NCBI GenBank assembly: GCA_002269645.1
Contig: NIVC01000471.1
Location: forward strand, 62,001-126,000
Direction of reading: 5' to 3'
DNA: 64,000 nucleotides
Origin: Macrostomum lignano
Lineage: Eukaryota
Positions 6,695 through 35,644 of the stretch are shown here, one piece after another. Position numbers and translations under genes: made by a program. The notes under the pieces are model-generated. The model was not told the DNA's origin and did no database searches. It saw nothing but the letters and a program-made list of their open reading frames with translations. Each line of letters starts with the position of its first letter. Within the stretch, counting starts at the first letter, position 1.

Positions 6695-7025
6695 GTGGTC
6701 TCGCTTCCTTATATCTGGAGGCAATGTCTATAACTGTGAGAACATACTTGTAGTCTGAGTCATTGGGGAGAAACAGAAGATCTGTTGGTGCGCCTCATTA
6801 GGTTTATAAATACTGAAATGGGGCCTTTCAAATTTTACTGGTGGGAAATAGACTTTGTAGACTGCTTGCTTAGAGAGCCATCTTTCAACTGTTTTTTTTT
6901 ATTCATTACTTAGTTCTGCGAGTTTGGCGACTGCATTTTTGCCTACAAAGAATCCTTTGTCACTATAGTAGATAGATTTTAGTTTTTCTTCTCCCATTTT
7001 TTAAAAAGAAAATTTTAAATAAATA

Positions 7026-7382
7026 ATGCAACGCTATGGTGTTAACTTAGATTCACATGGACTGATAGAAAAGCTTCCATGTCCAAACAAAGGCTGGACA
7101 ATTCCTGGCTACAAATATTGCGGGCCTTTGAATCCACTTGAAATACAGTTAGATAAAAACAATAATCCAAACCCTGGGCATGAGCCTGTGAACGAGCTAG
7201 ACTCTGTCTGCATGTGGCACGACGTTAAGTATAAGGATTTTCCAGAGGAGAAGAATCGCTGAGACAAAGAAATGCTTAGGAGATTAGACAATATGGGGAC
7301 TTCAAGCGAGTGGAGGGAATCAATCCCTCGGAAGCTAGTTAAAGCTGTTATTTTGGTAAGGAAAAGTTGGGGTTGGAGGCGA
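7026..7382 (+). pseudogene. PLA2X parvovirus-type phospholipase A2 of Polintons, copy A (internal TGA at 7260-7262)
   Basis: PGYKYCGPLNPL Ca-loop and NELDSVCMWHDVKY (HDxxY). The reading frame continues DKEML..LV..VI after the stop. Confidence 0.88.
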
Positions 7383-8112
7383 GGGTGGGTGTTGGGGAAG
7401 AGAGGGCTGGTGCATGGGGAGAAAGGGCGGAGGCTCGGGAGCAGGGTTTATTTTGTGCGCTCCTAACAAGGAACTGGGAAGACTTTTGAAAGATATGGGG
7501 GTAGAGAGACGCGCTTGAGTCGGGAAGGGTTTAACTATTATTATTCTCAGCCCTGACCAAATGCGACAGCTGCATTTGAAAAGTCGAGGCCAAAATCCTC
7601 TTCGATCTGGCCTCGGGTAAGGCCAAAATCCTAAAATCCTTTAGCCGAAGCTGACTTCGGCTAAATCTCTATCCCCCCCACGCCCACAGCCCAACCCCCA
7701 CTTTATCCAAACTCATTGCTCTGGCTGATTAAGCTGGCTTCGGCTAGATCTCTCTCCCCACCGAACAAACCCTCAAAACCCTCTACCCGGCTGGCTGTAT
7801 TAAACCAGAAGCATAAACCCCCCAGACCTCTTTACTAACATATATTCCCTCGCCAGGTACAGAAGAGAAACGATTAAAAGAACTTGAATCCAAATTGAAG
7901 CAAGGAAAAAGAAAGGTTTAATTACTTCATCGAGAGTGATTTGAAAAATATCCCTTTAGAGTTTTTCCAACATTGGAACGGATCGTCTCTGAGAAGAAAC
8001 ACTGATTTCTTTAAGTCAGTAGAGGTAAGACTCAAATCGGTGTACCTTTATCGGTGCATTTGTCTGGAACTTTTTATTTATTTATTTATAGCATTGTTTC
8101 ATTTCTTACAAC

Positions 8113-8409
8113 TTGAAGACCGTGTATCATCTGGAAGAAAAAAGGCGTGTGAAACAAAAAGAGTTGGACAGAACGAGATCAGAGAATATCCCTGAAGGAC
8201 TCGAGTGTAGCGTTTGCCTCGACTGGCTCGCCGACTCCCGACTGCTAGTCTGCGGCCACACTTTCTGTCGCAACTGTCTTGATCGCATATACAATGCGGA
8301 GGCAAATAGCATTCCCTGTCCCATATGTCGGACTGTGACGACTGGACAAGTAGAAGAACTGATTAAGAACTATTCTGTTGAAACAGCGATCCAAGGCTGT
8401 AAAAAATGA
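8113..8409 (+). CDS. C3HC4 RING-finger protein, probably the last exon (candidate upstream exon 7941-8024)
   Basis: CSVC..CGHTFCRNC..CPIC spacing. An in-phase GTAAG donor follows KSVE upstream. Confidence 0.8.
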   Translation: MKTVYHLEEKRRVKQKELDRTRSENIPEGLECSVCLDWLADSRLLVCGHTFCRNCLDRIYNAEANSIPCPICRTVTTGQVEELIKNYSVETAIQGCKK

Positions 8410-9335
8410 GCCCTTCTCTTTTTCCTGCTTTAATAGGAAAATAAAGATGAAAAAACATATCTTGAACTATGTTCTGCTGGCCTCCAACATAAAGAGCAAC
8501 TTTTTGTTTGTTGGAGACAAGACATATACTATAAGTCTATAAGTCTACTATAAGTCTTCTTTTTACTTTGTGACAATTACCATAAAAAGCTAGCATGATC
8601 TTACCAAAAACCACTACTTAACTACCTCTGTTATGCTCTGATGGGGGTGGGTGTGTGAGAGAATGTGAGAGAATTGAGAGAATGTGAGAAAATGCGTTCC
8701 CCTTTTAAGTATGCTTGCCGAGAATAGAGTAAAGAGTGGTATGAAAAAATGCGCGCATGTGTACTCAAAATCTCTTACCCCATTCTCACAGGTTGTGGGC
8801 GCGGGCGTCTCGTGTGTGGGGGAGAGGGGAGTGTATGCGTGTGGGTGCAGCGCGCGTGGGGGAGAGAGATTTTCACTTTAACTGAGCCCAGACGAGGAAG
8901 AATTCAGTGTTGAGCGAAGGTCAGAATGCAAACGATTTTGGCCTCGCGCAAGGCCACAATGCATACGATTTTGACCTTTCAGTTTTTTTGGCTGCATACT
9001 ATTAATTATAAGTCCTGTAACTTAAGTGAGAATACCGCTACTTTTTGCCCTTAGATTATGTTGATTTTTTGCTGTCCTAGGGAGGGGAGGGGTGGTAGAC
9101 TGATGTTATCCCTCTTAGATGAGTGGTTGTAAGTATTGCACTGGGATAGCTAATTTTAAACGTAAGAGCATTATGTATAGATAGATTTTACTAGATGTTG
9201 ATCTGTGGGGGGTTTATTCTCTTTTGTCCCAGAACTTCCCTCATGACAACTACTGAGTTTCGGCTTGAGATTTTTAACGCAATTATCTAATGATTTCTGC
9301 AAAGTTATAGTAGCTGTCGTAATCTTTTACGTAGG

Positions 9336-9425
9336 TTACTCCATACCTAAGAGCCAGTGTCTTTGGAGAGCTAGATTAATATTAGGGACATTGATATCAA
9401 CGCCGGGCCAATATTTTCTCATGTA
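9336..9425 (-). CDS. Small orphan exon 'orfX', copy A (YMRKYWPGVDINVPNINLALQRHWLLGME*)
   Basis: Inverted homologue at 18178-18267 has the same frame and stop. Confidence 0.5.
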   Translation of the reverse strand, partial: YMRKYWPGVDINVPNINLALQRHWLLGME

Positions 9426-9685
9426 CTCACTGCATTCTAGTTTGCATTGGTACTTACTCTTGTAATTAGGCTCGTGCGCTTTGTAATAAGAACCTGGAGA
9501 GAGGATTGAAAACATTTTTATTGAGAATTTAATTTTTTTCAAAGGGTAAGGACCCTGCGCTGATGATTTAAAGTCTTAGGGATCTGGTTTCGCGTTGCAA
9601 ATTGAATGTGGGGAGAAGAATGCAGATTCTTTTCTGATTGTTTCGAAGATGCTATGGGTGGATGTCAAAGGATTATGTAGGACAC

Positions 9686-9980
9686 CTGTTATGCTCTGAT
9701 TCTGTCGTGGAGGAAGGAGGATAGGTTAGGAGGATTATGTTCGAAGTTTTCGGAACAAGTGTGACCCTCTGATTCAGGAATAATATGGATGGATTTAATG
9801 GGATTATGTTCGAAGTTTTCGGAGCAAGTGCGACACCTGTTATGCTCTGATTCTGTCGGGGATAATATGGATGGATTTAATGGGATTATGGAGGACGTTT
9901 TGTGAGCGAGTGCGACCCCCCTTTTTTCTGATTCTGTCAGGGATAATATAGATGGATTTAAAAGGAATATGGAGGACGTG
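9686..9980. repeat. Degenerate tandem repeat (CTGTTATGCTCTGATTCTGTC / ATAATATGGATGGATTTAATGGGATTATG)
   Basis: Three to four recurring blocks are visible. Confidence 0.7.
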
Positions 9981-10004
9981 AAAAATTTTGTCCCAGAAGC
10001 CCCT

Positions 10005-12476: not shown

Positions 12477-12489
12477 TTTTGCAAATTTC

Positions 12490-12860: not shown

Positions 12861-13409
12861 CTACCTGTTCCTCCCGTATTTTCTTCGTTCTTCTCCATCC
12901 TTTTCGTTGTATCCCGTCGTTTTCGTAGTGCAAATTTTTAATGCAATCATCAACTCTTGCAGTGTTGCAGTCATGCGCGTGGGGAAAGCTTCCCCATGGA
13001 ATGTATACGTTGCTGAGCGATACTCTCAGGCTAGAGGATAATTTAAATGTTTGTCAGGTTATTATTCATAGTTGCCACCCCTGCTCAAATTTTGAGCAAT
13101 CGCTAAGAAAATTAAGCTGCTCAAATGCTTAATTTTATTTGGTTCTGCTCAAAAAAGTAATTATTTTTTTGCTTGTCTATTTTTTAATTCTATTGCTGAA
13201 AAGTCATTCTAAATAAAGTAAGAAAGGTCAAAATGTTTCTTGTTCCTATTTTTGGGTCATTAGTTTTGTAATTTTCTCTATAAACTTGTACGTAGAAGTC
13301 TATGTATAAGTATATTATATGTATAAGTAGTGAAAATACTAAAGTGGGAATCTAGGGAAGTAGTAGTTTAGGTACTATAAAATTCAAGTCACATTTCAGC
13401 CACATTCTA

Positions 13410-14135
13410 ATGCCCACTGATCGAAAAACGAAGTGGAATGCTACCTGGTTATCTTAACATGACCATTCGGGGTCAAAATAACACGCTGGTGCCAGAAAGA
13501 CGACGAAAATGACGATGAAGCCACATGTAGATTGTGCAACCGTGGAGTAAATTTTCGTCAACATGGCATTGCTGCTTTGCTACATGCTGATGGTGCAAAG
13601 CACAAGGCTCTTTCTCGGGCTATTGTTGCTGCTGACAGTCAGCAAAAAATCAATGCTTTTTCCCAATCACTCCATCTGAGAACCAACAGCTAAAAAAAGT
13701 GGAGGCAGAGGCATCTTTGCCCCAACAGACCATGGCGGCGAGCCTACGATTCGAACTGCTTGTTGTTCGGAAAGACCTATCATTCAAAACTATGGACGAA
13801 ATTTCTGAAACACTGCCTGTTGCTATTCCTGATAGCAGTGTTGCTCAGAACTTTTCATGTGGAAGAACCAAGACAACGTACCTGGTCACTGATGCACTTG
13901 CCCCACATGCTAAGGAGGAAATGTTTAAGAGCCTTCGTGACCCTCCCTTTTCAATTCTGCTTGTTGAGGGCATGAAACGTGACCGCTGCTGGCTGGTTTT
14001 ACTGGCCCGCACTTTCTGCATTGAAAGGCAGAAGGTAATTCTTCTCTACATTGGTTCAGAGGAGCTTAAAAATTCATCGGCGTCAAATATGAAGAACACC
14101 GTTTTGTCCTTGCTATCCCAAGCCAAATTGCCTGC
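13410..14135 (+). pseudogene. hAT-superfamily transposase, N-terminal fragment
   Basis: BED-like finger CRLC..HADGAKH, then PDSSVAQNFSCGRTKTT..LAP..FSILL. Contains stops and frameshifts and is truncated near 14135. Confidence 0.75.
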
Positions 14136-15121
14136 AAGGCGCCGCCGAGGCATCGGGCGCCGAGGCTTCGGCCGCCGAGGCCACCGATCCCGACCCAGAT
14201 GTGCTGGGCAGTGTCATCTGTAGCTCAGACGACACGGAAGCTAAGGCACCGTCAGCAGGGGCAGGAGCAGCGGTTTTGCGCGCGTTTGCGCGGAACGCCG
14301 ACCGTATAGCACCCGTGATAGTCGCCCTTCGACGGTGCATTCTCTGGCGGGCTTTAAAGTTGTAGTGGGGGACAACCTTTTAGTTTAAATTCTCATTAGT
14401 TACTACAATCATAAAACAGCATACTCTTAAACTTAGCAACCTGTTTCACATCTTGAAGGCAAAAGTTTAATACGTACAATGCCGGGCCAATATAAAGGGT
14501 ACGAATATCGGGAGTAAGGTATGGGTATTAAAAAGTTATTTCACTACACTCTGTAAAGTTAATACGTACGTAAAGTTGTAAATTTTATTGAGTAGGAAAA
14601 TAGTTACTTCACATACGTTCTCTGTATACTGCCTTCCGGTTTTAATACGTACTTGGAAATTGATACGTTGCAAATTCGGATAAATTAGTACGCAGTAAAA
14701 ATTTAGCACTTCATACGCGTTGCTACTTTAAGAGCAAATTTAAGTGCATATTCTTTTCAAAATTCTTTTCACTCACCATACTGTAGGCCAAATTTTTTCT
14801 TCAAGCTTTGGAACTGTCGGTGTTGCGTCCAGTGCCACCTGCCCGCCCTGGTCGCAACAGGCGCCACATGCCGCTCGGTGTCAGGCCGGACTTGCTGTTC
14901 TGCCCGCTCCGCTTCGCCTTCGACAGCCTGCGAGTGGGGCTCCGGGTCGACGCTTTCCGGGAAAGCCAGAAAGGACGCCATGAATGATTCGGCCATAGAC
15001 AATGCGGTGTCATAGGCGACGGCGTCAGACTCCTTCAGGAATGTTTCAGTAGGAGTTGGGTATTTGCTAGAGATTGTAAATTATACGCACATTAATATAA
15101 AGAGACATTTTTGATCACTTA

Positions 15122-17535
<2,414 letters not shown>

Positions 17536-17824
17536 AACTTGATCACGTTATAGGTGCTAGCTAAGAAGGGTAGAACAAAAAGAATTTGCGAGGCAGAGAA
17601 AAAATGAGCGGGGGGTTTCTTTTCATACCAAGCTGCAGTGGTCCTCACTTCAATGAATTCTGATTGGCTCTCAGAATTTGCTACCTTTGAAAAAACCGAT
17701 ATTGTAAAGTACATTCTTTAAGAATTTCACACACCTTTGACGTAGCAAAGTCTATGGGTAGTAAAATTTGGCCTCCATCCTAATAAAAACAATTTGAGAC
17801 GCCGAAAAGGTCTCCATCTCCATC

Positions 17825-17948
17825 GCAGGCGCTACTTTGACTGGCGCCGGTCAAAGTACTTCCCAGAGGTCTCACGGACGAAAAAGAGTATTTTGGTACC
17901 TTCCGAATTTCATACACATCTTATGTAGCAAAGTCTATGGGTAGTAAA
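17825..17948. repeat. 124-bp direct repeat, copy 2
   Basis: Matches 15997-16120. Confidence 0.9.
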
Positions 17949-18177
17949 TGATTTGAATTTTAGTACGTACTGAAAATTTCATACGTAAACGACGTACGCA
18001 ATTTAGAGGGTAGGAAAATCCGAACGTGGCAAAATACTGAATAATAGAGCGGCCCTTCTAATCCTCTACCCTGGTACTGTTGAATTCACGGAAACGCCTG
18101 GCATTGGAAACGATACAAAACGTTTCCCCTATTAGGGCCCTTCTTATCCCCTGCCCAGTTGTTGAATTCATTAGTAG

Positions 18178-18267
18178 TACATGAGAAAATATTGGCCCGA
18201 CCACACAATACACGTCCCTAATATTAATCTAGCTCTCCAAAGACACTGGCTCTTAAGTATGGAGTAA
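18178..18267 (+). CDS. Small orphan exon 'orfX', copy B (YMRKYWPDHTIHVPNINLALQRHWLLSME*)
   Basis: Homologous to 9336-9425 (-) and convergent with the penton stop. Confidence 0.5.
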   Translation, partial: YMRKYWPDHTIHVPNINLALQRHWLLSME

Positions 18268-18334
18268 CCTATGAAAAAGATTACGAAAGCTACTATAACT
18301 TTGCAGAAATCATTAGGCAATTGTAATTTTTTCC

Positions 18335-19169
18335 TCACATTCTCTCGATGATCAACGTCAATACAAACTCTTCACCGTTGAAATCAACACCCACCCCATC
18401 TTCAGTTTCAAACTGTAGCACAATCTCGTGAATCTCCTTATTACTCAACACAACTTTTTTTCACTGGATTTGGTTTCTTTACCAGCATCTGTCCTCCAGT
18501 TACAGAGTTAGAGATGTTGTACAAAATATTCGTTCGCTTTCCCTTAAATACCCAATCAAGACTAAGATTACTTTTGATGAGAATATTCAAACCCTTTAGA
18601 ATGTCTGCAATATTGGGTGCTAAGAACAAACCGCTTACACTTTCCCGGGCCATGCTAACGACCCCCGATGATTTCGGCGCTTAAGTGCCGGTCTGCGCCG
18701 TGGATTTTACCTTATAAACTTTCTTCTCGAATCCCAATTCCCTATACCAAGTGTCATCTTTAAACTCAACCTCCGCAGCTTTGTGAACTTAAATGACCAC
18801 TCTTATTACAGTGAGATCATAGGCTAGTTGGACAGGGAACAGTTCTGGCTTAATCAGATTAGGTGTCTCAAAACGGCCTCTTTTAAGTTAAAACTTTTTC
18901 TAGAAAGTAATTGTAGGTATCCACACCTTGCGTGCTCACAGGGAATGCCACAGGTTCTGCTGCCGCACCTTTTAATTTGTAATAAAACTTATTATTTGCT
19001 GCTGCAACATTGGGAACGTTTGACCAACCAGTGCAGTCGTTAAGCAAATCGTCTGATCTAATTTTTCAACAAATATCCCGTTTGAGTCATTAATTGGCCC
19101 AGTTATTGCAAAAGGAATGCTCTCCTTTGAGTGAGAAATATTATTTAGTCTTTCAGAAATCGCTTTCAT
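18335..19169 (-). pseudogene. Polinton minor capsid protein (penton), frameshifted
   Basis: Pieces across frames: WSNVPNVAAANNKFYY, ELGFEKKVY, TNILYNISNSV, and C-terminal EIVLQFETEDGVGVDFNGEEFVLTLIIERM*, which resembles the penton DFNGE motif. Confidence 0.75.
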
Positions 19170-19194
19170 TTTTTGTACTAAAAATTTTTAAACT

Positions 19195-19420
19195 TTACTG
19201 GATGAATTGTTGATCGTGTTAAGCTTCACCAAATGCATAGATAATGTACAGGTCCACGGGTGTTGCGACAGTCCTCTCAATGTTAGTCACGATACTCACA
19301 GGGCTGTTATCAGTAGGCATTTGTCTGGCAGACACATCAGCGCCAAACATCGGATATAGAGTTCCATATTGAAGTGTAGTGACTCCTCTCTTGGTGTTCC
19401 TTTGCAGGATTTTTTAAAGG
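19195..19420 (-). pseudogene. Probable C-terminal fragment of Polinton major capsid protein (hexon)
   Basis: YGTLYPMFGADVSARQ..SPVSIVTNI..DLYIIYAF resembles the LYPxFxFDVS end of Polinton MCPs. It lies directly upstream of the penton on the same strand. Confidence 0.55.
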
Positions 19421-19734
19421 CGCATACTGGTTGGATTCTAATTGATTGATGATTTCCAAGTGTTTTTCGTAGCTTCCCAGGTGACCAGGGTCGGTGTTAA
19501 ACTTTTGTTTGAATGCTTCTCTTAGTAAATTACTTTTGTCTTGAAATGAGACGCCTTTTGAAAAATATTTGTTGACTTAATCTTTTGCTGAATTGGCTTT
19601 TGACATTTTTTCTCTAAAATAATAAAAAAATTGAGGGTGACCACTCTGATAGAAAAGTTGAACTGTTTCTACATCCTCGTCACATCCGCATTGTTGTAAA
19701 CCCAGCATTGTGCAGTGTCATGATGGCTTTGTGA

Positions 19735-20159
19735 CAACGCTATGGTGGTAACTTAGATTCACATGGATTAATTGAAAAGCTTCCTCATCCAAACAGAGGC
19801 TGGACAATTCCCGGGTACAAATATTGCGGGCCTTTGAATCCACTTGAAATTCAGTTAAAAACAATAATCCAAATCCTGGGCATGAGCCTGTGAACGAGCT
19901 CGACTCTGTCTGCATGTGGCACGACGTTAAGTATAGGGATTTTGCAGAGAAGAATCGCTGGGACAAGGAAATGCTTAGGAGACTAGACAATATGGGGACT
20001 TCAAGCGGGTGGAGGGAATCGATTGCTTGGAAGCTAGTTAAAGCTGTTATTTTTGGTAAGACAAAGTTGGGGTTGGGGCTTGGCGGCTTGGGAGAAGGGG
20101 CGAGTTTTGTATTGCATGCGCCAAGTAAAGAACTAGGAAGACTGCTGACTGGGGGTTGA
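19735..20159 (+). pseudogene. PLA2X copy B (4-nt deletion near 19856)
   Basis: Same motifs as copy A. Has TGG where copy A has TGA, and ends KTKLGLG. Confidence 0.88.
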
Positions 20160-20181
20160 GAGAGCAGAATAATTTTCTCTT

Positions 20182-20309: not shown

Positions 20310-20989
20310 TACAGTCTTGAGCACTGGTTTCGGCTACAATCTCTCTTTCCAACATGCTTCTCCTTCATGCTCCTCACCTCCTCACCCTATGCTCTGTGTA
20401 CAGAGAAGTCTCACCCTTCACTTTCACACGCCTAATGTTCTATCGTACATTGAGCTATATCGATTACTTTTCCCTGCTTGACTCCAAGATTTTACAGTCC
20501 AGAATTTTCTGGAATTTTCTACGGCTAGCTGTATTTAAGCAAACACTGAAACATTCGGGCTTCTTCTCCCCACATATGCAATCAACTGCGACTGAGAAAC
20601 GACGATTGCACGAACCTAGATCGAAACTAAGGACTGTACAAAATCTGACAGCCGTGCTGCACGCTGAAAGCGATCTAAGAAATTGTCCGCCAGGCTAGAA
20701 GATAGTAGATAGTAGATAGTAGAAGAGACTAGAAGACTTAGAAAATGGAAGTCGAGTGGAATCTTTATTTGACAGATAAGCAAGGCCTTTGTGCCATGCT
20801 ACAAAGAATGTTACAGGATATGCCGTCACATCTACAAGCAAGAAAGGAACTAACCACCTTTTTCGGTCTAGTGTAGAGTATTATACCTCCCAGAAAAGTT
20901 ATTTAAAATTGTTAACGTACTACTTAAATAGTAATTTGAGGAGCATGTATAAGGATATGCGCTGAACCATACATACTCGTATATTCGAA

Positions 20990-21290
20990 TGAACCAATAG
21001 AAAGAGAGAAATCTCGAGCATGCTAATTTTAGAAATCACCCAATCACGTGCGACCAACAACTGTCAATTCAAACCCCACCTTCAAGTCATCATTTGGTTT
21101 GCACTCGGGTTGCACCCGGATGAACCAATCAAAGTCTACCAGCTACGGTAACCAATCATGCGCTTGTACAGTAGACTAGTTGCGCAACTTTCTACCGTCA
21201 TGATTGACAGCTACCGAATCGTGACCCTTTGACATTTGCGAAGACAGTGATGTACGACCTCGAGAGAGGTCTGAACGCCTATAAATACAA
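20990..21290 (+). promoter_or_regulatory. Multi-CCAAT plus TATA promoter candidate
   Basis: At least four CCAAT boxes, then TATAAATA at 21280-21287, then an ATG exon ending in GTAAG. Confidence 0.5.
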
Positions 21291-22111
21291 GTGGTCCGAA
21301 ACGGACTCAGAGCCAACAATTCCTCCGGAAGTAGAAGAGCTCCGAAGATGAAGCCACTACAGGACTTCCTACAGAAGACTCGTCGAGTTCTTGCGGTAAG
21401 CCTTACTCATTTGCGCCTGTGTTTTGAGACGTCTCGTTGGAGTTTAGTTTGAGTCTGTTGAGACTCCTGAGTCTGTTTAGACTCTACTGGTTGCAGTCTC
21501 CAGAAGGACTGCCCCTGATAGATCTTAGAAGACTATCAGTGGTTTCCGGAGCTATACCTAGAGTGCATAGAGGCACTGCTAGAAGGAGTAGGCTTATATT
21601 AAACCGCAGTTTGGCGCAAGGTACCCATTGTTAAGTTGGAAGCTTCTTATTGGTCCGAACGACAGATACCGACCGGCAAAAGAAGAAAAAGAAACTCGGA
21701 CCAGGACCACAAGTCGAGTCGAATTCAGGCCTGAGCTACAGATCGAGATCTACACGAGATCTACGAAGGACTCAAAGAAGGAGAGATATCTCATAAGAAG
21801 TCAAGGTAATTGAATGCTTGAATGTTTGAATTACTGGGTTGCCTAGCTAAAGAGCTAGAAGTGATTGTTCTTTGATTACCGAAGTCGGGTAATAAGGAAC
21901 ACATCACTAGAAACTGGCGATCTACCAATCGAGTTTTTCGCCATGGCCCCAGATAATATCGCCGCAGCGAATGAAGCGCAAATGTGAGTAGCGAAGAGAA
22001 GAAGACGGCGGATCTGCAGATATTCAGGGAGAAGCTGTACGCATCTTGCGTAACACTAACTGATCAGCTGATCACCAGCTTCCATCTGGCGAGCAGAACA
22101 TCATCACGAAG

Positions 22112-22426
22112 GTGAAGGCGGCTATAGCAAAATACAAGACTCAAATTGGAGGTCTACATTGGATTCTCGAAGTTGGGCGGCTGCTTACAACTTATCGCAC
22201 CGAAGAGAAAAAGAACTTTGGACAAGATGTTAAAGTACGGTTCGCCCAGTTGTGCAAAAATGTAAACATCCAGCGATCAACTGGCTATTTTTACATTCGT
22301 CTGTACAAACTGTCTGTTACCTACCCAGGCTTGAGACAGGTTTCGATGCCAATTAGGGAATTAAACTCTAAGATGAAGTTTCTAGAAGAAATTTTAGCCC
22401 GTGATCCTGCGTGGAAAACTGTGTAA
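22112..22426 (+). CDS. Orphan helical protein (probable terminal part of a spliced gene)
   Basis: Plausible globular composition (RSTGYFYIRLYKLSVTYPGL). No family recognised. Confidence 0.45.
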   Translation: MKAAIAKYKTQIGGLHWILEVGRLLTTYRTEEKKNFGQDVKVRFAQLCKNVNIQRSTGYFYIRLYKLSVTYPGLRQVSMPIRELNSKMKFLEEILARDPAWKTV

Positions 22427-23062: not shown

Positions 23063-24356
23063 ATGTTGGTAGAGAATCCAGTGAAAAAAGTTGTGTTGAG
23101 TACCAATTCCATCACATGCAACAAATGCGCCGGTGATCATCAATCTACTGAATGTCCCAAGACTGATGCCCTAAAGTGCGCAAACTGCAATGGCGCACAC
23201 CTGGCTTACTCGCATAAGTGCCCAGTTGCAAAAAAGGCGCACCAACAAGCAAACGCGCGTGAAATTGAACGAGTATCCAACTTAATGCAAGCCAACAACA
23301 AGCAGTATGAAGAAGACTGCTACCGACGACATCTGCCCGAGACTTATCCTGGACTACAACAGTACGCCACTGTAGCTAGGCCACAGTTCGACTCTGCACC
23401 AAGTCTCCGCCCTATGACTGCTGCAATGCCAACCTGCGGCAGTCCAGACGATGGCCTCTGCGTCCCCGAACACATAGTTCCCCTAGGCACTGAAAACAAC
23501 GGAACTGATAATTGGGAGGTTGATCAATATTTAGCTTGGGCTATGGCCGATGATAGCGACCCCGAGTCTAAAGTTTTCGACCTCCCGCTGCTGGCTATTG
23601 GAGGGGTTGTGAACGGTGCCCCTGCTGCTGCCTCCGATTTGACTGCTGCCTCTGCCGCCCTCTTTGAGCTGACCACAGCCGGCCCCGTCTCGAGCAATGC
23701 CTCTGCTGACGCCTCTGCATCGGCTGATGTCCTGTCTGCTGCCGCCTCTGCATCGACTACCTCCAACCGGGGCTCTATATCATCTGCCGCTACGCTCCTC
23801 CTCCTTGGTGATGAGGACGAGGACGTGCCTGGGGAGTTTGCCATGGCTCGCGAGCGCTTTCCACGCATCCTTGCCTCGTTTTTCTGCGGGGATATCGACT
23901 GGCTGAGGTCTCGGCATCCTGGCGGCCTGCTTTCCCAAGACACCTTTATCAGAGCCTTTGATAGGGTTCTCTATACTTTGGTTTCGAGGGGGGCCGGCCT
24001 ACGGGAGGTGCTGGAGGCTGAGAATCTGCACCAGGACTGGTTGATGGGGCGCAATTCGAATGCCTCTGACTCAGAGGCGTACCTGGCCGGTCCTGGAGCG
24101 CGCCCGACTGCGTGGGATGAGCCCGCCGCTATGCAACCCTCTAACTGGGAGGAGCACCTTTCGCTGGTGCGCTATACAGCGTCTCTACGTCTGTGGCGGC
24201 TGGAGGACGATTTAGATTTGGTAAGATATTACATTATATATACATTTCATGTAATCTGTATTTCATATATTCTGTCTATATAGAATGTTTTAATTTTCAC
24301 ATTGCCAGTCATCCGACTACTGCTTCGATAGCGTGGAGGAAGACCCTAGTAATTAG
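23063..24356 (+). CDS. Chimeric ORF: penton-derived start, LINE ORF1-type zinc knuckles, and 'orfY' body. Exons 23063-24220 and 24309-24356
   Basis: CNKCAGDHQSTEC and CANCNGAHLAYSHKCP. The body aligns with 30395-31288. GTAAG donor at 24221 and CAG acceptor at 24308. Confidence 0.6.
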
Positions 24357-24379
24357 CCGTGGGGAAGTAATTAGCCGTG

Positions 24380-25570: not shown

Positions 25571-25599
25571 ATCGACTGCCGATTTGCGTTCATACAGTT

Positions 25600-28318
25600 T
25601 TGCCTCAGAAGGCAATGATTGCGGGCTAAATTGCTACAATGCTCAGTGCCTTGAAAATCACAAGCGCAAGAATAAGGCTGGTAGATCGCGCTGTGATTCG
25701 GTTCACGTTTGCGGGACGTGCGGCTATGTGGAAGAGCTAAAAGTAGGCCAGGCCCCCGAGCATCAGTGCGGTCACGCCAAGTGTCCAGTCTGCAAGCAGT
25801 ACGACGAAACTGCCACCCACGAGTGCTTTGTCACCCCGCCCAAAGCCAAAGAGTCTAGCGCCCCGTACGTTTACTACGATTTTGAGACGTACGTAGACTT
25901 TGACAAGCAGCACCGGGTACACTTGGTTACGGCAGCTACCTCGTGCGAGTCGTGTCCCAAACTCTTCCCGAGGCCCCGCTGTAGCGCGTGCGGGGGGTTG
26001 CACAGCTCAACTAATTGCATTGCGGGACGCGATTTGGCGCGCGATTTTACTGGCTGTGTCTCCCACAATGACTGCGCTTGCGGGATGCGAGAGTTTGTTT
26101 CGGTTGGGCCGCACTCTATCGATGCCTTTTACTGCTGGCTGACTAGTGTGTTCAAGCAGGGGGCTATTGCTATTGCGCACAATGGCTCCGCGTATGACGC
26201 ATTCCTCCTGCTCGGAGCCCTACTTAACGGACTGGCCAAGAAGAAGCCCCAAGTGATCTTCCAGAATAGCCGCCTAATGTACATGAAGAGCGACAAGATC
26301 ACATTCAAGGAAAGCCTCAACTTCATCCCTATTGGTCTGGCGCAATTCCCAAAGGCGCTTGGTTTGGGCACCCAGCTGACCAAGGGTGATTTCCCGCATG
26401 TGTTTAATCAACCGCAAAATTGGTACTACGTAGGGCCTTACTGTTCGATTGAAATGTACGGCGGGAAGAAAAACAAGCAGCATGACTCCATCGCAGACTG
26501 GCTGGCCAAGCAGGAGGGTCAAGTGTTTAATTTCAACAAGGAATACTTGGACTACTGCCTGCAAGACACTCTAATTTTGCGGGAAGGGTGTCTAAAATAC
26601 GCCCGCCTGATTAAGGACATTTGCGGACTGGACGCATTTGTCCAATCTAACACCATTGCGGGCTTGGCCATGGCTGTTTTCACCACCAAGTTTATGGAGC
26701 CCAACACTCTTGGGGTGATTTCCCGCCGGTCAGATGTGCAGTCGTACAAGGCGCGGTGCTGGCTTACACCTTTGAATGCAACCGAGTTTGGCGGCCGGTT
26801 GCGGACAGCCGACTCTGGCGGCGAGGCTTTCGCCATGGGTCGAAAGGTGGACGGCTTCGACCCAGAGACTAGGACAGTGCTCGAATTCCACGGCTGCTTC
26901 TACCATGGCTGTCCCAAGTGCTTCCCCAACGGCGACGTGCTGCACCCGCTCAAGAACCAGCCAATGCGGGCAATTTATGAAGAGACTGAGCGCTTCACTC
27001 GACTGCTCTCCACGGCCTACAATGTACGTGTCCTGTGGGAGCACGACTACCAGGACGAGGGAGCGCCAGTCCAGCCGCCTATTCGCCTGGAGGAGGCCCT
27101 ATTTAGCGGCCGCACCGAGGCTTTTGTCCCGCACGCCGAGGCCACCGAGACTGTGGAGCTGCGCTATCGGGATGTGGTAAGTTTCTCTTGCACAGTTTAC
27201 TATACTAAATCTATATTCTACTACAACTACCACCACTTTCCCTCTAGGTGTCGCTCTACCCGACTGTCAACAAGTTTGACAAGTACCCTGTCGGGCACCC
27301 GGTTCACCACCCCGAGCCTCATCTACTGGATGAGCAGCAGCTGGCCTGGTACTTTGGCATCGCCGAGGTCTCGATTCTGCCGCCTACCAATCTCCACATC
27401 CCGCTACTGCCCGCCAAGATTAGCAAGAAGCTGGTTTTCGGCCTCTGCCGCGTCTGCATGGAGACCCAGTGCAGCAGCGAGTGTACACACACTGACGCTG
27501 AGAGAATGCTCCGCGGTACATGGTCGACCCCAGAGCTCCACAAGGCCCTGCAGTTGGGTTACAAACTGCAGTCAGTTCTTGCCCTGGCCTATTGGGCCGA
27601 GACTCGGAGCGGGCTGTTTGCAGACTATGTAAACACCTTTTTGAAGCTCAAGGCCGAGTCTAGCGGTTCGCCGGGGATGACTGAGGACGCCAAGGCCGCC
27701 TACATGGCCAGCTTTTTCGAGCGCGAAGGTGTCCGGCTGGAAAAGGTGGAAGAAAATCCTGGCCTGCGCTTTGTTGCCAAGATTTTTCTAAACTCGTAAG
27801 TTGGGGTTTTTCTACTTGCCGTGGGGGGCGTGTTTTTCTACTTACAGTAGCCAGATATACCTACATATTCCCTAAAACTGCAGGCTCTGGGGCAAATTCT
27901 GCCAGCGCGACGACTTGACCTCCACGGAGATTGTGGACAGCTACGAGGCGTGGCTGCAGCGTCTGACGGACCCGTCCATCAAGGTCAAGTCGTGCGAGCC
28001 TGTCGGGGAGAGCTTCATGATGCTCGAATACAAGCCCCGAATTGGTGGTGCTGTCGAGCGGGCCTTCAAGTACGCCAATGTACCAATTGGCGTTTTCACC
28101 ACCTCCCACGCCCGGCTGCGACCATACGAGGCTTTGGAGGGCCTAGGGACCCGAGTCATTTACACTGATACTGATTCGTAAGTAATTTTTCCCCCTGTCT
28201 CTGTCTGTTTCCCCCCTTAACACTATATCCTCCTGCTCCACAGGGTCGTGTATCGGTGCTCTCCCGGCCAGTACGAGCCTCCTGGCGGTTCGAGTTTGGG
28301 GCAGTGGACTGATGAGGC
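25600..28318 (+). pseudogene. Protein-primed DNA polymerase B of Polinton type. Introns at 27177-27247, 27796-27883 and 28178-28243; C-terminus truncated
   Basis: Zn-finger region, ExoI YYDFETY, ExoII AHNGSAYD, ExoIII YCLQD, EFHGCFYHGCPKC insert, GRTE. Spliced motifs YRDV|VSLYP, KIFLNS|LWGKF and YTDTDS|V. Stops after LGQWTDE. Confidence 0.95.
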
Positions 28319-28900
28319 CACAAATTGCAGGTAGGCGCAGGCCACAACCAGAGCTCGCAGCAGGCACCTCTTATCCGTGTTGGTGATGTGGACATAGTGC
28401 TTGGAGAAGGCATGGCGCTCCTCCAGATGCTTGTTCTCTAGGGCACAGCCAACCTGAGGCACCCAGGCATTTAGCAGACGGATAGAAAAGTTGCCCGTCA
28501 ATAGTGGCATCCGACTGCACAATCTTGTCAATCAACGTGCTAAAACAACAACTCTGCTGTCATGCGGGCTGCACGCACCGGGGGAGTATGGGCCGCTTTG
28601 AGCATGTTGTCGCTCTCGAATTTCGCGGCCATAAAGTCTTCCCCCGCCAAATCCTGCTTAAAGACATCGAGCATGTCGGCAAACACCTCCCGCAAATCTT
28701 CGATGTTAGTAATGCGCACCACATACTCGACGCCCTTTGCCCTAAACTTTGGCAGGTCACGTTGATTATCTAGCCGGGCCGTTAAACCTGCAGGGAATGA
28801 ATGGGAGTGTGAGTCAGCCCGGTTCTGTCTGGGGAATGGGGGCTATATAACTCACCCGGTCCGGTAACTGATTCAGGTTGGGCAGGCGGAACAAACGCGT
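28318..28900 (-). pseudogene. N-terminal exons of the same pPolB type, in inverted orientation
   Basis: KIVQSD.. and HITNTDKRCLLRALVVACA resemble the N-D-x-x-C-L-x-R-A-x-V-V motif of Polinton pPolB N-termini. A phase-1 GT-AG intron lies near 28791-28857. Confidence 0.7.
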
Positions 28901-29030
28901 CTGAAAAAACAAGAAAATAAAAAACCAGAAGAATCTGTCAATTCGCGGCACCCCAGGATCAGACTCCAACCGGTTCATTGTTTGTGCTCCTGCATAACCC
29001 CTTGCGCTCAGGCCCTCCTGCCGACACGCG

Positions 29031-29741: not shown

Positions 29742-30287
29742 ATGTCTTCTATCGCTCTATACGAAAACTTTGTGGTGCGGAAGCCCACATTTGAAACGGA
29801 GCATGACTTAATTGAAATCCGTCGTCTCTACACCAACGAAGCCGGAGTGTGGAAGGACGGCTTCCCAGCAATCTATTTAAGCGAGGTCGAGTGGAAGAAG
29901 CTCGAAGCTGCACGCCCTGACCTGGAGGCTGCGGTACGTCTTCACGTGGACAAGAGAGTCGTGTTGGGCAACTTCAAGGCGGCAGAAGCTTCACAGGGGA
30001 GGATTCGTTTGCGGCGCAATTGGCTTAATCGGGATCCAAAGTTCAATTGGCGCTACACAATTGAATTCACGCCGGAACTGTGGCGCCGGATGTTTGCCGC
30101 CCGTTTGGGCAAGCTCTTCAAACCCAAGGCCCCACCGCAAGCCAAGCGAGCCAGGACCGAGACCTCTCCGGTAGCCAGGACTGAGGAGGAGGAAGAAAAT
30201 CTCCAGGACATTCTCCAGGTTGTGGGTCTCAAACCCTACCAATCCCCGCCCTGGGAAAATCTGTTTGACGAGAGTCAGCGCTGGTAG
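29742..30287 (+). CDS. PC4-like ssDNA-binding protein, apparently with two tandem domains; intact
   Basis: LIEIRRLYTNEAGVWKDGFPAIYLSEVEWKKLEAARPDLEAAVR aligns by eye with PC4 [53 protein letters not shown] at 29690. Confidence 0.78.
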   Translation: MSSIALYENFVVRKPTFETEHDLIEIRRLYTNEAGVWKDGFPAIYLSEVEWKKLEAARPDLEAAVRLHVDKRVVLGNFKAAEASQGRIRLRRNWLNRDPKFNWRYTIEFTPELWRRMFAARLGKLFKPKAPPQAKRARTETSPVARTEEEEENLQDILQVVGLKPYQSPPWENLFDESQRW

Positions 30288-30394
30288 TTCCCTATTGGCT
30301 CGCGCCACCCCGCGGGGCTCCCTATATAACTATCCAGCCTCTAGAGAGCCAAACCCTAATCCTAGCCCTGATACTATAGTCTGCTGATTCCAAC

Positions 30395-31393
30395 ATGTCC
30401 CGCCGCCGAGCTCTATCCACCCTCTGGGATAAAAACCGCCCATCTGAAGAATTAGCCTCCCTCGACGGTGAAATACCCGAACATATAATCCCCATAGGCA
30501 TAGAAAACGGCGGACTTGACTATCCTGAAAATTGGGGTGCTGATATAGCCTTATCTTGGGCTTTGTGGGCTATTACCTACGATAGCGACACCGGGTCTGA
30601 GATTTTCGACATCCCGTGGGGTAATACCTACGATAGCGACACTGGGTCTGAGATTTTCGACCTCCCACCGCTGACTATCGGAGGGGGTGTGAACGCTGCC
30701 GCTGCCGACTCTGGTGCCTCTGCCGCTGCCGCCCCTGCCACCTCTGCCGCCGATGCCGACTCTGCCGCTGCCGACTCTGGTGTCTCTGCCTCTGCCGCCC
30801 CTGCCACCTCTGCCGCCGATGCCGACTCTGCCGCTGCCGACTCTGGTGTCTCTGCCTCTGCCGCCCCTGCTGCCGCTGCCGACTCTGGTGCTGCCTCCCC
30901 CGGTGTCTCTGCCTCTGCCGCCTCCAGCCAAGCCTCGATATCATCAGCCACCACGATCCTTCTCTTTGGTGATGAGGAAATGAATATGGCCGAGGAGATC
31001 GCTATGGTCCGCGATCGCTTTCCGCGTATTGTGGCCTCCTTTTTTCACCGTGATATCGAGTGGTTGAGGTCTCGCCACCCCGACGGCCTGCCTCCCCAAG
31101 ACACCTTTGTCGAGGCCTTTTATCGGGTTCTCGATACTTTGGTGTCGAGGGGGGCTGACCTACGGGAGGTGTTGGAGGCAGAGACACTACATCAAGATTG
31201 GTTGATGGGGCGCAATTCGCATGCCTCCGACACTGAGGCATATCTGGCCGGTCCGGGAGCGCGCCCTACTGAGTGGGATGCACCTATGGTAAGATATTAC
31301 ACCGTATACACAATTCGTCTTATCATATACAAAGCATATATTCTATCTACATTAATTGTTTTAATTTCCCCATTGCAGTCGGCCGACTACTGA
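30395..31393 (+). CDS. Orphan 'orfY', Ala/Ser-rich with a conserved C-terminal domain. Exons 30395-31288 and 31379-31393
   Basis: ATTGG at 30294 and TATATAA at 30323. Paralogue at 23460-24356 has an intron at the equivalent position. Confidence 0.7.
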   Translation: MSRRRALSTLWDKNRPSEELASLDGEIPEHIIPIGIENGGLDYPENWGADIALSWALWAITYDSDTGSEIFDIPWGNTYDSDTGSEIFDLPPLTIGGGVNAAAADSGASAAAAPATSAADADSAAADSGVSASAAPATSAADADSAAADSGVSASAAPAAAADSGAASPGVSASAASSQASISSATTILLFGDEEMNMAEEIAMVRDRFPRIVASFFHRDIEWLRSRHPDGLPPQDTFVEAFYRVLDTLVSRGADLREVLEAETLHQDWLMGRNSHASDTEAYLAGPGARPTEWDAPMVRYYTVYTIRLIIYKAYILSTLIVLISPLQSADY

Positions 31394-32479
31394 TTCGAGA
31401 CCCTTGAGGAGGAGGCGGTATGAAACAACACTGAGGAGTGGCTGGAGGTTGACTGGGGTTTGCGGTTTTTTCTCCCTGTAAGTGGTTTAGGGGAACCCCG
31501 CAGTATACACTGAGTAGATAGGAATGGGGTTGACTGCGGTTAAAAGACTAATTCAGATGGCTCACCCCTAGGGAGAAAATTGTCTCCCTTACACAGTGTC
31601 CCCTGACTGAGATTCGCCTGTCTGCGCGGCACTTGGGAGCCGCTAAAACCCTATTTGGAAGCCCCCATTTGGGGAGGAAAAATAGCTCTCCTAGGTGAGG
31701 GTCACCTGGTCTGGATGAAAATAGCTCAAGCTGTACATTGGGATCCCCTCGAAACATTACTCAGCCCGCCTTGGTCTCCACTGTCTGGCGCTAGATGCAG
31801 TCGGTCGCTTTGCACTCAGCTGGGGAGGGACTGGCTCTGTTTCTCCGCCCTCACTGTACTTGCCCCTGGGGAGGAATGCCTTCATGCGTGTCTCGAATAT
31901 CCCTTACTAGGTGGGCCAGATATTTTACCTTTGTTTGCACCTACATTATGTCAATATACGCTCAATTTTGCGTACATATGTTGCATATATCACAATTTGT
32001 ACCTTCCGTGTGTGTATTTTAGCCCATGCACCTCCATTAATTTCAATCTAGTGTGTATTTTGCCTATATACGGTTGCATTATACTTGTATCTACTGTGTG
32101 TACGTGTATTTCAACCTATGTTTAATTTTCCTACAGTATACTTGAATCTGCCTACTACACTAACAAAGCGATATGTACCTGCTATTTTGCCTGTTTTACC
32201 GTCTGCCAATATAACAATAATATCATTGTGTGTATTTTGCTATACCTAAGTTTGTACACCTATATGCAATATGCACCAATATGTACATTTTTAATATGCA
32301 CCTGCATTATACCTACTGTGTATTTTTATGTAAATATACATAATTAAATCTACTATAATGCATAATTTTGTGTTTTTATCGCTAACTACACGTATATTGG
32401 GAGAGTGTACACATGTATTGGGCGAGTGTACATGTGTATTGGGCGAGTGTACACCTGTATCACCTGTATTGGACGAGTG

Positions 32480-32830
32480 TACCTTCGGTTTGGGGTGCCT
32501 ATGGCAGGGAGGGTGCCTGCGGTGTACATATAGAGGCGCCCGCGGCAGGGAGGGCGCCTGCGGAGGACGCCTGCGGCGGGGAGGGTTGTCGTACATGTCG
32601 GGAGGGACGCCTGCGGCTGGGAGGGCACCTGCGGCATGTGCACCGTATATGTTGGGAGGGCACCTGCGGCGGGGAGGGCGCCTGCGGCGGGGAGGGCGCC
32701 TTCGAAGGGGAGAGGCGCCTTCGGAGGGCACCTGCGGCATGTGCACCGTACATGTCGAAAGGGCACCTGCGGCGGGGAGGGCGCCTGTGGCATGGGCGCC
32801 TGGATGGCGCTTGGCGCCACGCGCCGAGCA
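32480..32830. repeat. GC-rich tandem repeat (GGCGGGGAGGGCGCCTGC) next to AT-rich TGTAC repeats
   Basis: Directly visible. Confidence 0.8.
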
Positions 32831-35644
32831 CCTACCAATGAGAGGTGAGGTAGGTTGACACCCACCCCACCTCCAAAACCGATGGATCTGGCAGTCCTTA
32901 GTAGTTGTTTCTCTTCATAATTTTATGCTATGCCGATTGCTACATATACATGCATTAAATTGCATGATGATGATATGAATAATCAATAAATTATGCATTG
33001 CTCTAATTAATAATTCAACAGTAGGATTATAACTTGTCTATAACAAATGTTTTATTAGAAATTTCTGCCATTTACAAATTGCAATGTGTTACTAATTTTT
33101 CGTAATAAAGAGGCAATACACCTAGTTAAAAGGAGCACTCAGTAGGCAAAGGCTAGGTCAGATCTTGGGTCTGGGAGGCAGCACGCTTGTTTTACTGGGG
33201 AATAGGGATGGGCAGTTTGGGGAGGGAGGAGCTGTACACTCTTTTTAGATGAAAGGGGAGAGAGGGAAGATTGCACATCTGACATCTTTAAATGAACAAG
33301 GCAGACTCAGTTGCTATTGCTATCAACTGTTGTATAGTGTTTCTTGTTTTGTATTTTGTTTTAACATTTTGTTCATAAAAACATTTTTAAATGTTTTTTG
33401 TACATCAATTGAACATACAATATGTGAATACGTCATTTTATACGTCTACTGCCACGCCAGACATCTACGTCAGACACCGATACGCCGGCACAGTGGCGCA
33501 CAATTGGCATAGCTATTGTGTTACGCCGAATGTTATACGCCAAGCATATTTTCAGGTCTACTGTACGCCAGAATTTTCTGGCGTATATGTAAGATTCGGG
33601 AGTGAGGGACTATGATTGGCGCTAAGGCCTAATAGCAATTGCCAGAACAGGGCAGTCAAGCATAAGTTGTTCTTTGTCGCTGTATATTAGCTCGTATATG
33701 TAGTAATTTTACTAAAAATGGCACAAAATTATTAACAAAATTTAAGCAATAGTACATAGTAACAATAAGCATAATAAAGCAACTTAGCAAAGCAAGGCAA
33801 TATATTGAACCACTTAATAAGAAAAAACAGGATAAACAGGACAATAGGATAAAGAATACTATTAAAATGATAACTACAATACAAGAAATTACTACTACTT
33901 CACAAATTAATTTGATTTAATTGTCAGGACAATTCAGCAAATGATATATAAATATATAATATAATAATACATTCAAAAGATAGGCATTATTTATTAGGCA
34001 ATAAGAAAATAATAAGAAAAATGCAATAAAATTTGACTTTTGAAATTTGGGTTGGGAGCCAAAATATGAAAATAAAGCTATTGAAATTTGAATACTGGAC
34101 ACTGGTTAGGTTATTCTGATTCAAAACTGGTATTGGCGAAATTCCGGTATTGAATATCGGGATCCCAGTTTAGGGCAAGTCCAGTATTTTAGCATCCATA
34201 GACATGAGCCACATCTCCCAAAGAGATATAGCTTTTTATAAAAACCAAGTTTACAAGTTCTTAAATCTTCTACATACTAAATCTTCAATGTAAAAATATT
34301 TAATTTGTACTGCAGAAATATTTTATTACATATAATAATACAAGTGTGCTATATACTGATTATATTGCCCTGCAACTTATAATATTTAGCATAGAATATT
34401 AAATAAAACATTGTAACAACTTACGGACCTACTTGCTAGGAGTTACCGGTTTCAAAAAGTATTGGGTATGGGGACGGGCGCTCCAATATACAAACTGAGA
34501 CGAAAGGCCTGAGGGCCATTCGAGTCTGGCAAGTTGGCTGTCTGTCTGACTGAATCAGCGGTATATACTCATGTTCGACCCCCGCCCCTCCCCTTTCGTG
34601 CAGGCCGCGGGGGGTAAGGGAGAGAAAGGGAGGCAGGCAGTTAATGTACGGCCCAGCCATTGGACAAGCGGTTGGAAATCGAGGGAGTTGACAAACCCAG
34701 TTTTAGGGTGAGTGAGGAGAGAAGGCTAGCTGCGTGCACGTGCATACATACGATCGGTCGGTCGGTCGAGAGATATCGATCGGTTCTGTTTTGTAGGCCA
34801 TGTAGGGCCAGCTTGAATACGGTTCCCAATTCTGGGTTAAGGGCCAGACAAAGAATCCAATTCATGGGAGTCATGGCTTATGGCTGCCGGGAGGGGAGGG
34901 AGAGAAGAAAAGAAGAGGAAAGAGCTGAGACCGTGAGAGACGCAGAGCGGACCGAATTGCTATTGGGATAGGGAAGTTTAAGGACCCGAGGCCCCGAAGG
35001 CCAAACCGGATAGACAGGATTCGCGCTTCGCGGGCCTTGAAGCCTTTGATTATACAAAGCCTGCTTCGCATAGCATCATGGACGACTTTAATAATCAATA
35101 GCAATAAAATCTAGGAGTTCATGTTCGCACACAGGCACACAGCACCGGGAGAGGTGAATCATCCCAGTTCGCGTCATGGGCAAAGGGCCATAATTCTCAT
35201 GAAGAGAGATCATTAGGACTTAAAATTGAAAAGGACCGCTGTAAAAGTTGGAAGTCAAAACTTAACAAGCGACTGCTTGAGTAGAACGACACTAACGACA
35301 TAAACGACACTTAGTAGTCCATGACTTAAACTTAAAATTTCAACATCTTTAAGAATTAGTTGAAACAGCACATCACAAATTGGTTTGGGAAAATCAGACC
35401 ACATCAAAACTACATGGGAATTGTAAACCAGCTTTTTTCACACACAATTTGAAAATTTAAGAAATTCCGGGCGGTACAATTTGTCGAGAATCCCGGGATT
35501 TTTTAAGTCGGGGATATCCCAATCCCGAAAATCCCGGGATTGGCAAAACTCGGGATTTTTTATTCCCCAGTTATGACTCATGGAATGGAATTTGTCATTC
35601 CGTGCGGCAGACCAAATCTGCACCTAATGGTATAGGGTCTAGCT

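Follow-up and report, generated by a model that had tools for sequence, protein, structure and literature searches.

The 64,000-nt stretch analysed here, henceforth the window, spans positions 62001–126000 of contig NIVC01000471.1 (C471; other contigs are named in the same way) in the Macrostomum lignano assembly GCA_002269645.1, and it likely holds one segment of a bipartite Polinton. This segment, termed P, encodes a polymerase of the pPolB type and carries neither capsid nor integrase, while a second unit, termed S and located elsewhere in the genome, encodes capsid and integrase and carries no polymerase. Judged from their ends and gene content, P and S are probably complementing segments of one split Polinton: the lack of capsid and integrase in P would be accounted for if these genes reside on another unit whose ends are the same, and units with common ends and complementary genes are likely the halves of one genome. 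That the two complement each other and form virions is what we infer from sequence. Each of the three unit types bearing such ends (P, S, and the non-coding N) integrates separately with 6-bp target-site duplications (TSDs). The assembly comprises 5269 contigs, and counts from genome searches are lower bounds.

All 134 candidates of the polymerase search were scored, which gave 104 loci. Exon 3 was recovered at ≥85% at 56 of these (family P1, that of the window) and at 54–75% at 44 (family P2), and 19 P1 and 7 P2 loci were retrieved. P1 units measure 8.7–9.8 kb, below the Polinton range of 13–25 kb, with terminal inverted repeats (TIRs) of 1.2–1.4 kb in typical copies, which lies within the Polinton criterion of 100–1500 bp; P2 units measure ~9.5 kb without insertions. 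The ends begin with ACTACTA (P1) or ACTACGTA (P2), and exact 6-bp TSDs flanked every unit with both ends in view (15 of 15 P1, 6 of 6 P2). Inside the ends lie pPolB, a PC4-like open reading frame (ORF; 18 of 19 P1 loci), and an optional ORF-X. Capsid, penton, integrase, protease, and ATPase of S or of the ordinary Polintons A and A2 (described below) were found inside P ends at 0 of 26 loci, and capsid, PLA2X, RING, RecQ, and integrase at 0 of the 19 P1 loci retrieved. An earlier reading of the window from its letters (the original prediction) had proposed a single lineage with polymerase, single-stranded-DNA-binding protein, and helicase; other copies separate these modules, and that part of it fails.

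In the window, P is rearranged (polymerase body inverted, last exon cut, one TIR lost), and the inversion plus a loss of 0.6–0.7 kb separates the N-terminal exons of pPolB from its body. By position and by comparison with PMC11161782, these exons are likely the terminal-protein/vOTU region. The pPolB of the original prediction was confirmed, PF03175 being matched over cut-off in two exons. Intron joints lie at 27175/27247, 27795/27884, and 28177/28244 (GT..AG) and, on the minus strand, at 28785/28854; their spliced forms were recovered from putative RNA runs of three studies (3/4 joints in X1, 4/4 in X5, 3/4 in X7) and for none of the four joints in the DNA-like run X15. X1, X5, and X7 are presumed to be RNA, no run being recorded as such; joints were used, depth was not, and the splice contigs stem from family copies ~90% alike and not provably from the window copy. 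The predicted wealth of GT–AG introns and heavy use of host splicing hold for the polymerase only: the breaks in penton and PLA2X are frameshifts or a stop, and in RING, RecQ, and ORF-X candidate GT–AG sites look plausible by eye.

Within the polymerase families dN/dS was 0.055–0.10 (0.06–0.10 between the window pPolB and that on C173), and for the PC4-like ORF it was 0.26. The first half of this ORF matched PF02229 at E=0.039 and, in the Atlas, PC4 clusters as best matches at 0.86, under the 0.9 line; its second half had no Pfam match (PF02229). The tandem PC4 of the original prediction was dropped accordingly, leaving one PC4-like ORF as a weak lead, and the broader statements that the window holds Polinton debris and that the polymerase is accompanied by a PC4-like gene stand. 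The closest database proteins to the window polymerase (62–96%) are labelled Macrostomum lignano, those of other taxa reaching ~25–32%. Scans of IMG/VR with the window polymerase and the S capsid gave no relatives, and a PF04665 profile search of the genome gave 0 matches and is uninformative.

S was reached from an unpaired end that led to a small ORF, taken to encode a Polinton structural-module protein; a search with it returned two close families, S1 and S2. The capsid search yielded at least 63 loci, of which 16 were retrieved (6 S1, 10 S2). The units measure 9.8–10.6 kb (two are longer by extra sequence), have TIRs of 0.5–0.65 kb and, where both ends are in view, 6-bp TSDs in 7 of 8 S2 and 4 of 5 S1 units (one S1 read with a 3-nt shift). 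The integrase is of the rve type (PF00665 over cut-off). The capsid was modelled from a 38-row alignment at pLDDT 83, a single-sequence fold (pLDDT 31) having been discarded, and the model matches the double jelly-roll major capsid protein (MCP) of PBCV-1 at E=4e-12; the protein is related to ‘F54H12.2-like’ proteins. Penton-, protease-, and ATPase-like ORFs follow in Polinton order and are matched by metagenomic Polinton-like contigs, with no Pfam match over cut-off; these names and those of the small ORFs are partly presumptive, and a Walker A motif was recognised by eye. A polymerase of either class was found at 0 of the 16 loci retrieved. Taken together, P and S comprise the full Polinton core gene set, the integrase being assigned by Pfam and the MCP by fold. 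Between S1 and S2 dN/dS was 0.04–0.08, and the S integrase is under purifying selection; both halves are thus maintained, with purifying selection on P and on S. Capsids 72–74% identical to the S query also occur in ENA and Logan assemblies, branching beside S1+S2, so that the S lineage reaches beyond this genome.

P and S share a contig in three cases, 47, 167, and 469 kb apart, and no element joining an Alpha polymerase (the type of P) to S genes was found among the 104 polymerase and at least 63 capsid loci. Their termini match by family: 18 of 18 S2 ends are closer over 30 nt to P1 (26–30/30) than to P2 (16–21/30), and for S1 the nearer family is P2 at 11 of 11 ends (24–27/30, against 17–19/30 for P1). 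In terms of a segmented virus, complementary gene sets lie on separate units with matching termini, 29 of 29 S ends sorting to one P family. The terminal 30-mer of the window P end agrees with S2 ends at 25/30 and with S1 ends at 15/30, and those of the families A, A2, and S3, which start with AGTAG, agree with P/S ends at 9–14/30. Identical terminal 30-mers were found in two P1–S2, five P1–N, and one S2–N combinations. Positions 8–27 of the terminus in P1, S2, and N (e.g., window 32876–32905) consist of mosaic blocks between an invariant ACTACTA and a T run; the blocks are usually alike at both ends of one copy, shuffled among copies, and common to the unit types. One S2 copy (C150) has a right end with P1/N-type sequence and was considered as a whole-arm P/S recombinant, which was rejected since only the first 46 nt are of that type. 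Beyond the terminal ~30–45 nt, P and S have little in common.

Between families, synonymous sites are near saturation (pS 0.74 for P, 0.66–0.73 for S). In a pPolB tree, a check suggested with the original prediction, P1+P2 form a supported clade, and the branch leading to the window polymerase is long, no sister group being resolved for it; S1+S2 form a supported clade in the capsid tree, a quick version whose S rows are natural single copies. By sequence, the split is present in two matched family pairs, P1+S2 and P2+S1. P has no integrase and is yet flanked by TSDs, which suggests that an integrase acts on it in trans.

The same ends are borne by units without recognisable genes. An exact 22-mer of the P1 TIR occurred 131 times in the genome (0 times for the reversed control), and 19 paired units outside the polymerase list were sampled as N. 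Arms of ≥3.1 kb make 14 of the 19 near-perfect palindromes of 6.7–9.4 kb, and exact TSDs were found in 17. No polymerase, A, or S proteins were found among the 19 units, and inspection of the ORFs of two of them gave nothing recognisable. The arms combine P1 TIR sequence with an internal S2-TIR-like piece, and at C1485 a P2 unit lies inside a counterpart belonging to family 2. Among 20 unpaired TIR ends, 13 run into palindrome sequence, none has Polinton A genes, and one led to S1, which forms a distinct nested unit there and has an end of its own. Even non-coding units that bear just the ~30-bp end are inserted with 6-bp TSDs, so that the cis signal can be confined more closely.

A fuller reading, to which we give an even chance, is that these units go back to a recently active bipartite (possibly multipartite, with one segment per particle) double jelly-roll double-stranded DNA virus of an animal, whose segments integrate independently, whose split outlasted the divergence of two families, whose mosaic 30-bp origin is exchanged, and which has its own genome-length palindromic defective interfering genomes. 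Under the two-segment model itself, which we hold likely, the host would transcribe and splice P, splicing having been shown for four introns. With the ~30-bp ACTAC origin as its priming site, the pPolB of P would copy every molecule bearing that end, in keeping with the terminal-protein and vOTU region and the priming at genome ends described for Polinton pPolB in PMC11161782. The S integrase would insert any ACTAC-ended molecule with a 6-bp duplication, and packaging of ~9–10 kb molecules would fall to the capsid, penton, protease, and ATPase of S, the narrow range of unit sizes reflecting a capsid limit. Template switching at the common origin could yield both the mosaic ends and the 9-kb palindromes N, and copy-back synthesis could give the palindromes; N would be full cheats or defective satellites.

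Ordinary Polintons of the same genome contrast with P and S in starting with AGTAG, P/S ends starting with ACTAC, and the P polymerase differs in having spliced introns. Polinton A was retrieved from the flanking sequence of 8 penton loci, out of 40 listed, and from three TIR pairs. Complete copies are ~16 kb long, start 5'-AGTAG, have 6-bp TSDs, and encode penton, MCP, ATPase, protease, polymerase, pX, integrase, and PLA2X, to which one subfamily adds RING; all core genes, TIR, and TSD lie on one element in the copies on C1304 (16 kb), C869, and C1412, several Pfam matches being below cut-off. The search for TIRs and 6-bp TSDs, also suggested with the original prediction, thus found both for P units and for Polinton A. 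The A polymerase (PF03175 below cut-off, a weak Endonuclease_7 match) has no significant similarity to that of the window (best blastp E=0.15); it fits the ‘Beta’ type of Starrett et al. and the window polymerase fits their ‘Alpha’ type, as these types are characterised in PMC8502044. A second complete family, A2, is 18 kb long with AGTAG ends, a Beta polymerase, and a D5-like helicase; its capsid family (found with PF21738) was considered as the partner of P and rejected, A2 being a complete Polinton with its own Beta polymerase. Family S3 (C424, C641, C753, C2693; ~14.7 kb, AGTAG ends, copies 99% identical) has a full structural module with PLA2X and an internally deleted Beta polymerase, and spread despite this loss. 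It serves as an internal control, its polymerase lost by deletion and its AGTAG ends kept. Some S3 ORFs are presumably dUTPase-, TBP-like, and ankyrin proteins. P copies are inserted within Polinton A and beside S3. In the A copy on C2140 the TIR has grown by copy-back to 6.2 kb, which duplicates the penton gene, and PC4 and polymerase pieces are similarly duplicated in a P1 copy on C1090. Further capsid families 26–36% like the S capsid occur on C1390, C889, C3758, C297, C4619, and others, and the genome holds many Polinton lineages.

Several points weigh against the split reading. The PC4-like ORF was found at 0 of 7 P2 loci; the S capsid search is incomplete, with 150 of 279 candidates scored; the capsid families at 26–36% lie outside S1/S2 and outside the set compared; the two flanks disagree in one S1 and in one S2 unit; and one within-S1 capsid pair gave dN/dS 0.71, the query copy being frameshifted near its end. 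Among metagenomic relatives of the S capsid (29–36%), 9 of the 10 contigs >10 kb carry a polymerase on the same contig, several contig rows being the same element. These polymerases resemble the Beta type of Polinton A, with an Alpha match in 0 of 22 contigs >5 kb, so that a monopartite P+S ancestor, or the fission of one Alpha genome, is not shown by them. Finally, a full-length element with both P and S genes may be missing from the assembly. If such an autonomous master existed, unassembled or only exogenous, P, S, and N would be its dependent deletion derivatives, and mobile polymerase-less Polintons are indeed known (10.1101/2025.02.07.637071), as is S3 here; the fragmentation of the assembly and the lower-bound counts leave room for it. 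We nevertheless hold it unlikely, given that the polymerase and capsid loci include no linked copy, that the same split recurs in two families with saturated synonymous sites between them, that both halves are under strong purifying selection and P introns are spliced, and that P/S likeness is limited to the terminal ~30–45 nt, unlike simple deletion products.

A slightly smaller chance is given to a mutualism of two lineages, in which P and S cooperate but never were one genome, a plasmid-like P replicon having adopted the origin of a polymerase-less capsid module. The Beta-like polymerases of the metagenomic relatives agree with it, as do the long branch of the window polymerase and the frequency of polymerase replacement in Polintons (10.1101/2023.08.22.554363; PMC8502044). 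Those relatives are distant, however, and a module swap in a monopartite element could equally have joined an Alpha polymerase to the S capsid before a split; moreover, the same present-day mechanism is predicted as for a split genome, the difference lying in origin only. It is improbable that P is a self-copying satellite integrated by A or A2 and S a unit copied by their Beta polymerase, as independent parasites: A and A2 are abundant, complete, and make 6-bp TSDs, and P copies lie within A and beside S3, but the ends of A, A2, and S3 agree poorly with those of P and S (9–14/30), which match each other by family at up to 30/30, and S carries its own integrase under purifying selection. Least credible of all is the view of the original prediction, one intron-rich lineage with pPolB, PC4, RecQ, capsids, and PLA2X. 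These genes do lie within 26 kb here and, without the RecQ piece, on C157 and C513. Linkage in other genomic copies had been set beforehand as the test of this view, and only those two loci link the genes; they repeat the window heap at 93–98% with identical junctions (the RecQ piece is in neither retrieved stretch) and are therefore duplicates, not independent insertions or evidence, the modules lying apart in all other copies.

Bidnaviridae have a parvovirus-like NS1 and capsid and are not known to have an integrase or a double jelly-roll capsid. Among known systems they resemble a split Polinton in that their genome is in two segments whose termini match and their pPolB is of Polinton origin (PMC8502044, PMC11161782); they are single-stranded DNA viruses of parvovirus derivation, unlike P/S, which has an integrase and a PBCV-1-like double jelly-roll capsid and integrates. 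With Polintons/Mavericks (adintoviruses, Polintoviricetes; Alpha-PolB type in PMC8502044), P and S have in common the PF03175 pPolB, rve integrase, double jelly-roll MCP, penton, protease, ATPase, long TIRs, and 6-bp TSD, and their combined ~19–20 kb lies within 13–25 kb; unlike in Polintons, the genes are divided between two separately integrating units. The polB-less Polintons of Lepidoptera (10.1101/2025.02.07.637071), like S3, show that a capsid/integrase unit without polymerase keeps inserting, but there complete polB sisters exist and the gene was lost or replaced, whereas in this genome the searches gave no complete sister, and the ends recur on a reciprocal unit that is polymerase-only. 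Yeast linear plasmids pGKL1/pGKL2 and transpovirons are likewise capsid-less linear replicons needing a partner (PMC13348850, PMC11161782); the former are cytosolic without particles and the latter parasites of giant viruses, unlike P, whose partner S brings integrase and capsid and whose units lie in an animal nuclear genome. Multipartite viruses with ‘full cheats’ (PMC10159356) share complementary partial genomes plus non-coding genomes on common machinery, as the cheating model predicts; the present case is known from genome sequence.

No segmented or bipartite Polinton was found in the literature searched, though an earlier description might lie in supplements, subscription papers, or Repbase, and a search for Macrostomum with Polinton gave one unrelated paper only. 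The definition of Polintons asks for polymerase and integrase on one molecule, and Polinton screens require core genes within ~20 kb (Jeong et al., 10.1101/2023.08.22.554363), a design that would pass over a split form. According to a 2016 review (PMC5094692), demonstrated animal multipartite viruses comprised one single-stranded DNA and one single-stranded RNA virus only, polydnaviruses being excluded. If the split reading is true, a segmented double jelly-roll double-stranded DNA element would be added, with two complementary segments, full cheats, and monopartite relatives preserved side by side as a fossil record in a single genome, and the cheating model of multipartitism would become testable by copy counts and dates. 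The units would likewise serve as a natural test of Polinton mechanics. Units clustering at about 8–10.6 kb would point to capsid-limited packaging; a Polinton virion has not yet been observed according to 10.64898/2026.06.19.733378.

The window itself is a pile of fragments from unrelated mobile elements and not one element (Table 1).

Table 1. Mobile-element pieces in the window (window coordinates).
Feature	Position	Strand	Evidence or remark
rve integrase 5' fragment, Polinton A, outside the P/S system	6669..7027	-	tblastn 66–74% to C1412 integrase (PF00665 over cut-off)
PLA2X copy 1, Polinton A	7023..7515	+	broken by in-frame stop; single ORF in complete copies
RING-finger gene, Polinton A subfamily	7850..8409	+	Pfam zf-RING; C1304 equivalent between PLA2X and right TIR, 86% nt
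Right TIR, Polinton A (AGTAG-type family), extreme end eroded	8673..10003	.	matches both arms of C1304, C869, C2140
RecQ-bearing piece of a low-copy mobile unit distinct from A, P, and S	14140..18150	-	DNA matches to part of it on C2967, C2423
Polinton A: TIR piece, frameshifted penton (18338–19184), MCP 3' end (19231–19407)	18176..19382	-	tblastn
Polinton A piece past ~9.4-kb internal deletion, then frameshifted PLA2X copy 2 (19735–20174)	19381..20174	+	
Solo long terminal repeat (LTR) of a retrotransposon, source of TATA box ~21280	20872..21906	+	
120-aa orphan ORF	22064..22426	+	35% to accessory ORF in Polinton A copy C869
Stray second copy of P unit ORF-X	23463..24343	+	85% to C41, C493; 79% to window 30907–31280
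Alpha-type pPolB body, P unit family 1, three spliced introns; inverted, cut in last exon	25612..28317	+	
N-terminal exons of window pPolB, one spliced intron	28316..28943	-	
PC4-like ORF of P unit, putative single-stranded-DNA-binding protein	29742..30287	+	weak PC4 matches
ORF-X of P unit, an accessory gene present in some copies; no matching family	30395..31390	+	
P unit TIR, inner boundary approximate, partner arm missing	31400..32905	.	ends at 32905 with ACTACT on minus strand

Many of the gene identities of the original prediction were recovered: both PLA2X-type pieces (PF08398, over cut-off for copy 1 and, within copy 2, for its second piece), the RING finger, RecQ (Pfam DEAD, Helicase_C, and a weak RecQ_Zn_bind), and, by tblastn using proteins from a complete copy at another locus, the penton and the 3' end of the hexon/MCP. 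The same search found neither ATPase nor protease in the window, none having been recognised in the original prediction; an integrase, likewise not recognised there, had been overlooked as the 5' fragment. By their matches, penton, hexon end, both PLA2X, RING, and integrase fragment derive from the ordinary 16-kb Polinton A, complete copies of which carry penton (294 aa) and PLA2X (169 aa) each as one unbroken ORF. Two A copies are represented in the window, one by its right end (6669–10003) and the other in internally deleted form (18176–20174), the latter with parts 18178–19382 and 19381–19677 that map 9.4 kb apart in C1412; for the piece at 18176–19382, 40 copies were scored, the window's own included, most of the other 39 at 86–90%. 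A link of capsid, PLA2X, RING, and RecQ to the window polymerase was rejected, the P unit in C1412 being a nested insertion in Polinton A with its own TIRs and TSD.

The RecQ piece has DNA-level matches on C2967 and C2423 only and one 61% relative at C538, and it is missing from the equivalent site of the duplicate locus C157. At C2967 and C538, RecQ lies in a 9–12 kb stretch interrupting the D5-like helicase gene of an A2 copy, and the stretches at these two A2 loci have one orphan ORF in common; uninterrupted A2 copies are without RecQ, and it is in neither P nor S units. No TIR or TSD was found for this unit, which was considered as a possible AcademH-like transposon. The main TATA-driven ‘orphan’ gene of the original prediction (~21280) sits in a 1035-bp repeat (20872–21906), identified as a solo LTR by its TG..CA ends, 4-bp CTAG flank duplication, 710 search candidates, and same-strand pairs ~10 kb apart.

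Between the Polinton pieces (at 5219–6069, 13400–14139, 23039–23420, and 24343–25611) lie piggyBac-like fragments (weak Pfam matches), LINE ORF1-like fragments, and others that we take from their motifs to be hAT-like and for which Pfam had no match. Further Alpha polymerase units in degenerate form are present on C471 upstream of the window, among them one that includes a PC4-like ORF (42%), which makes the contig a hotspot for such elements. Dense minisatellite and microsatellite arrays occupy positions 37000–60200 of the window.

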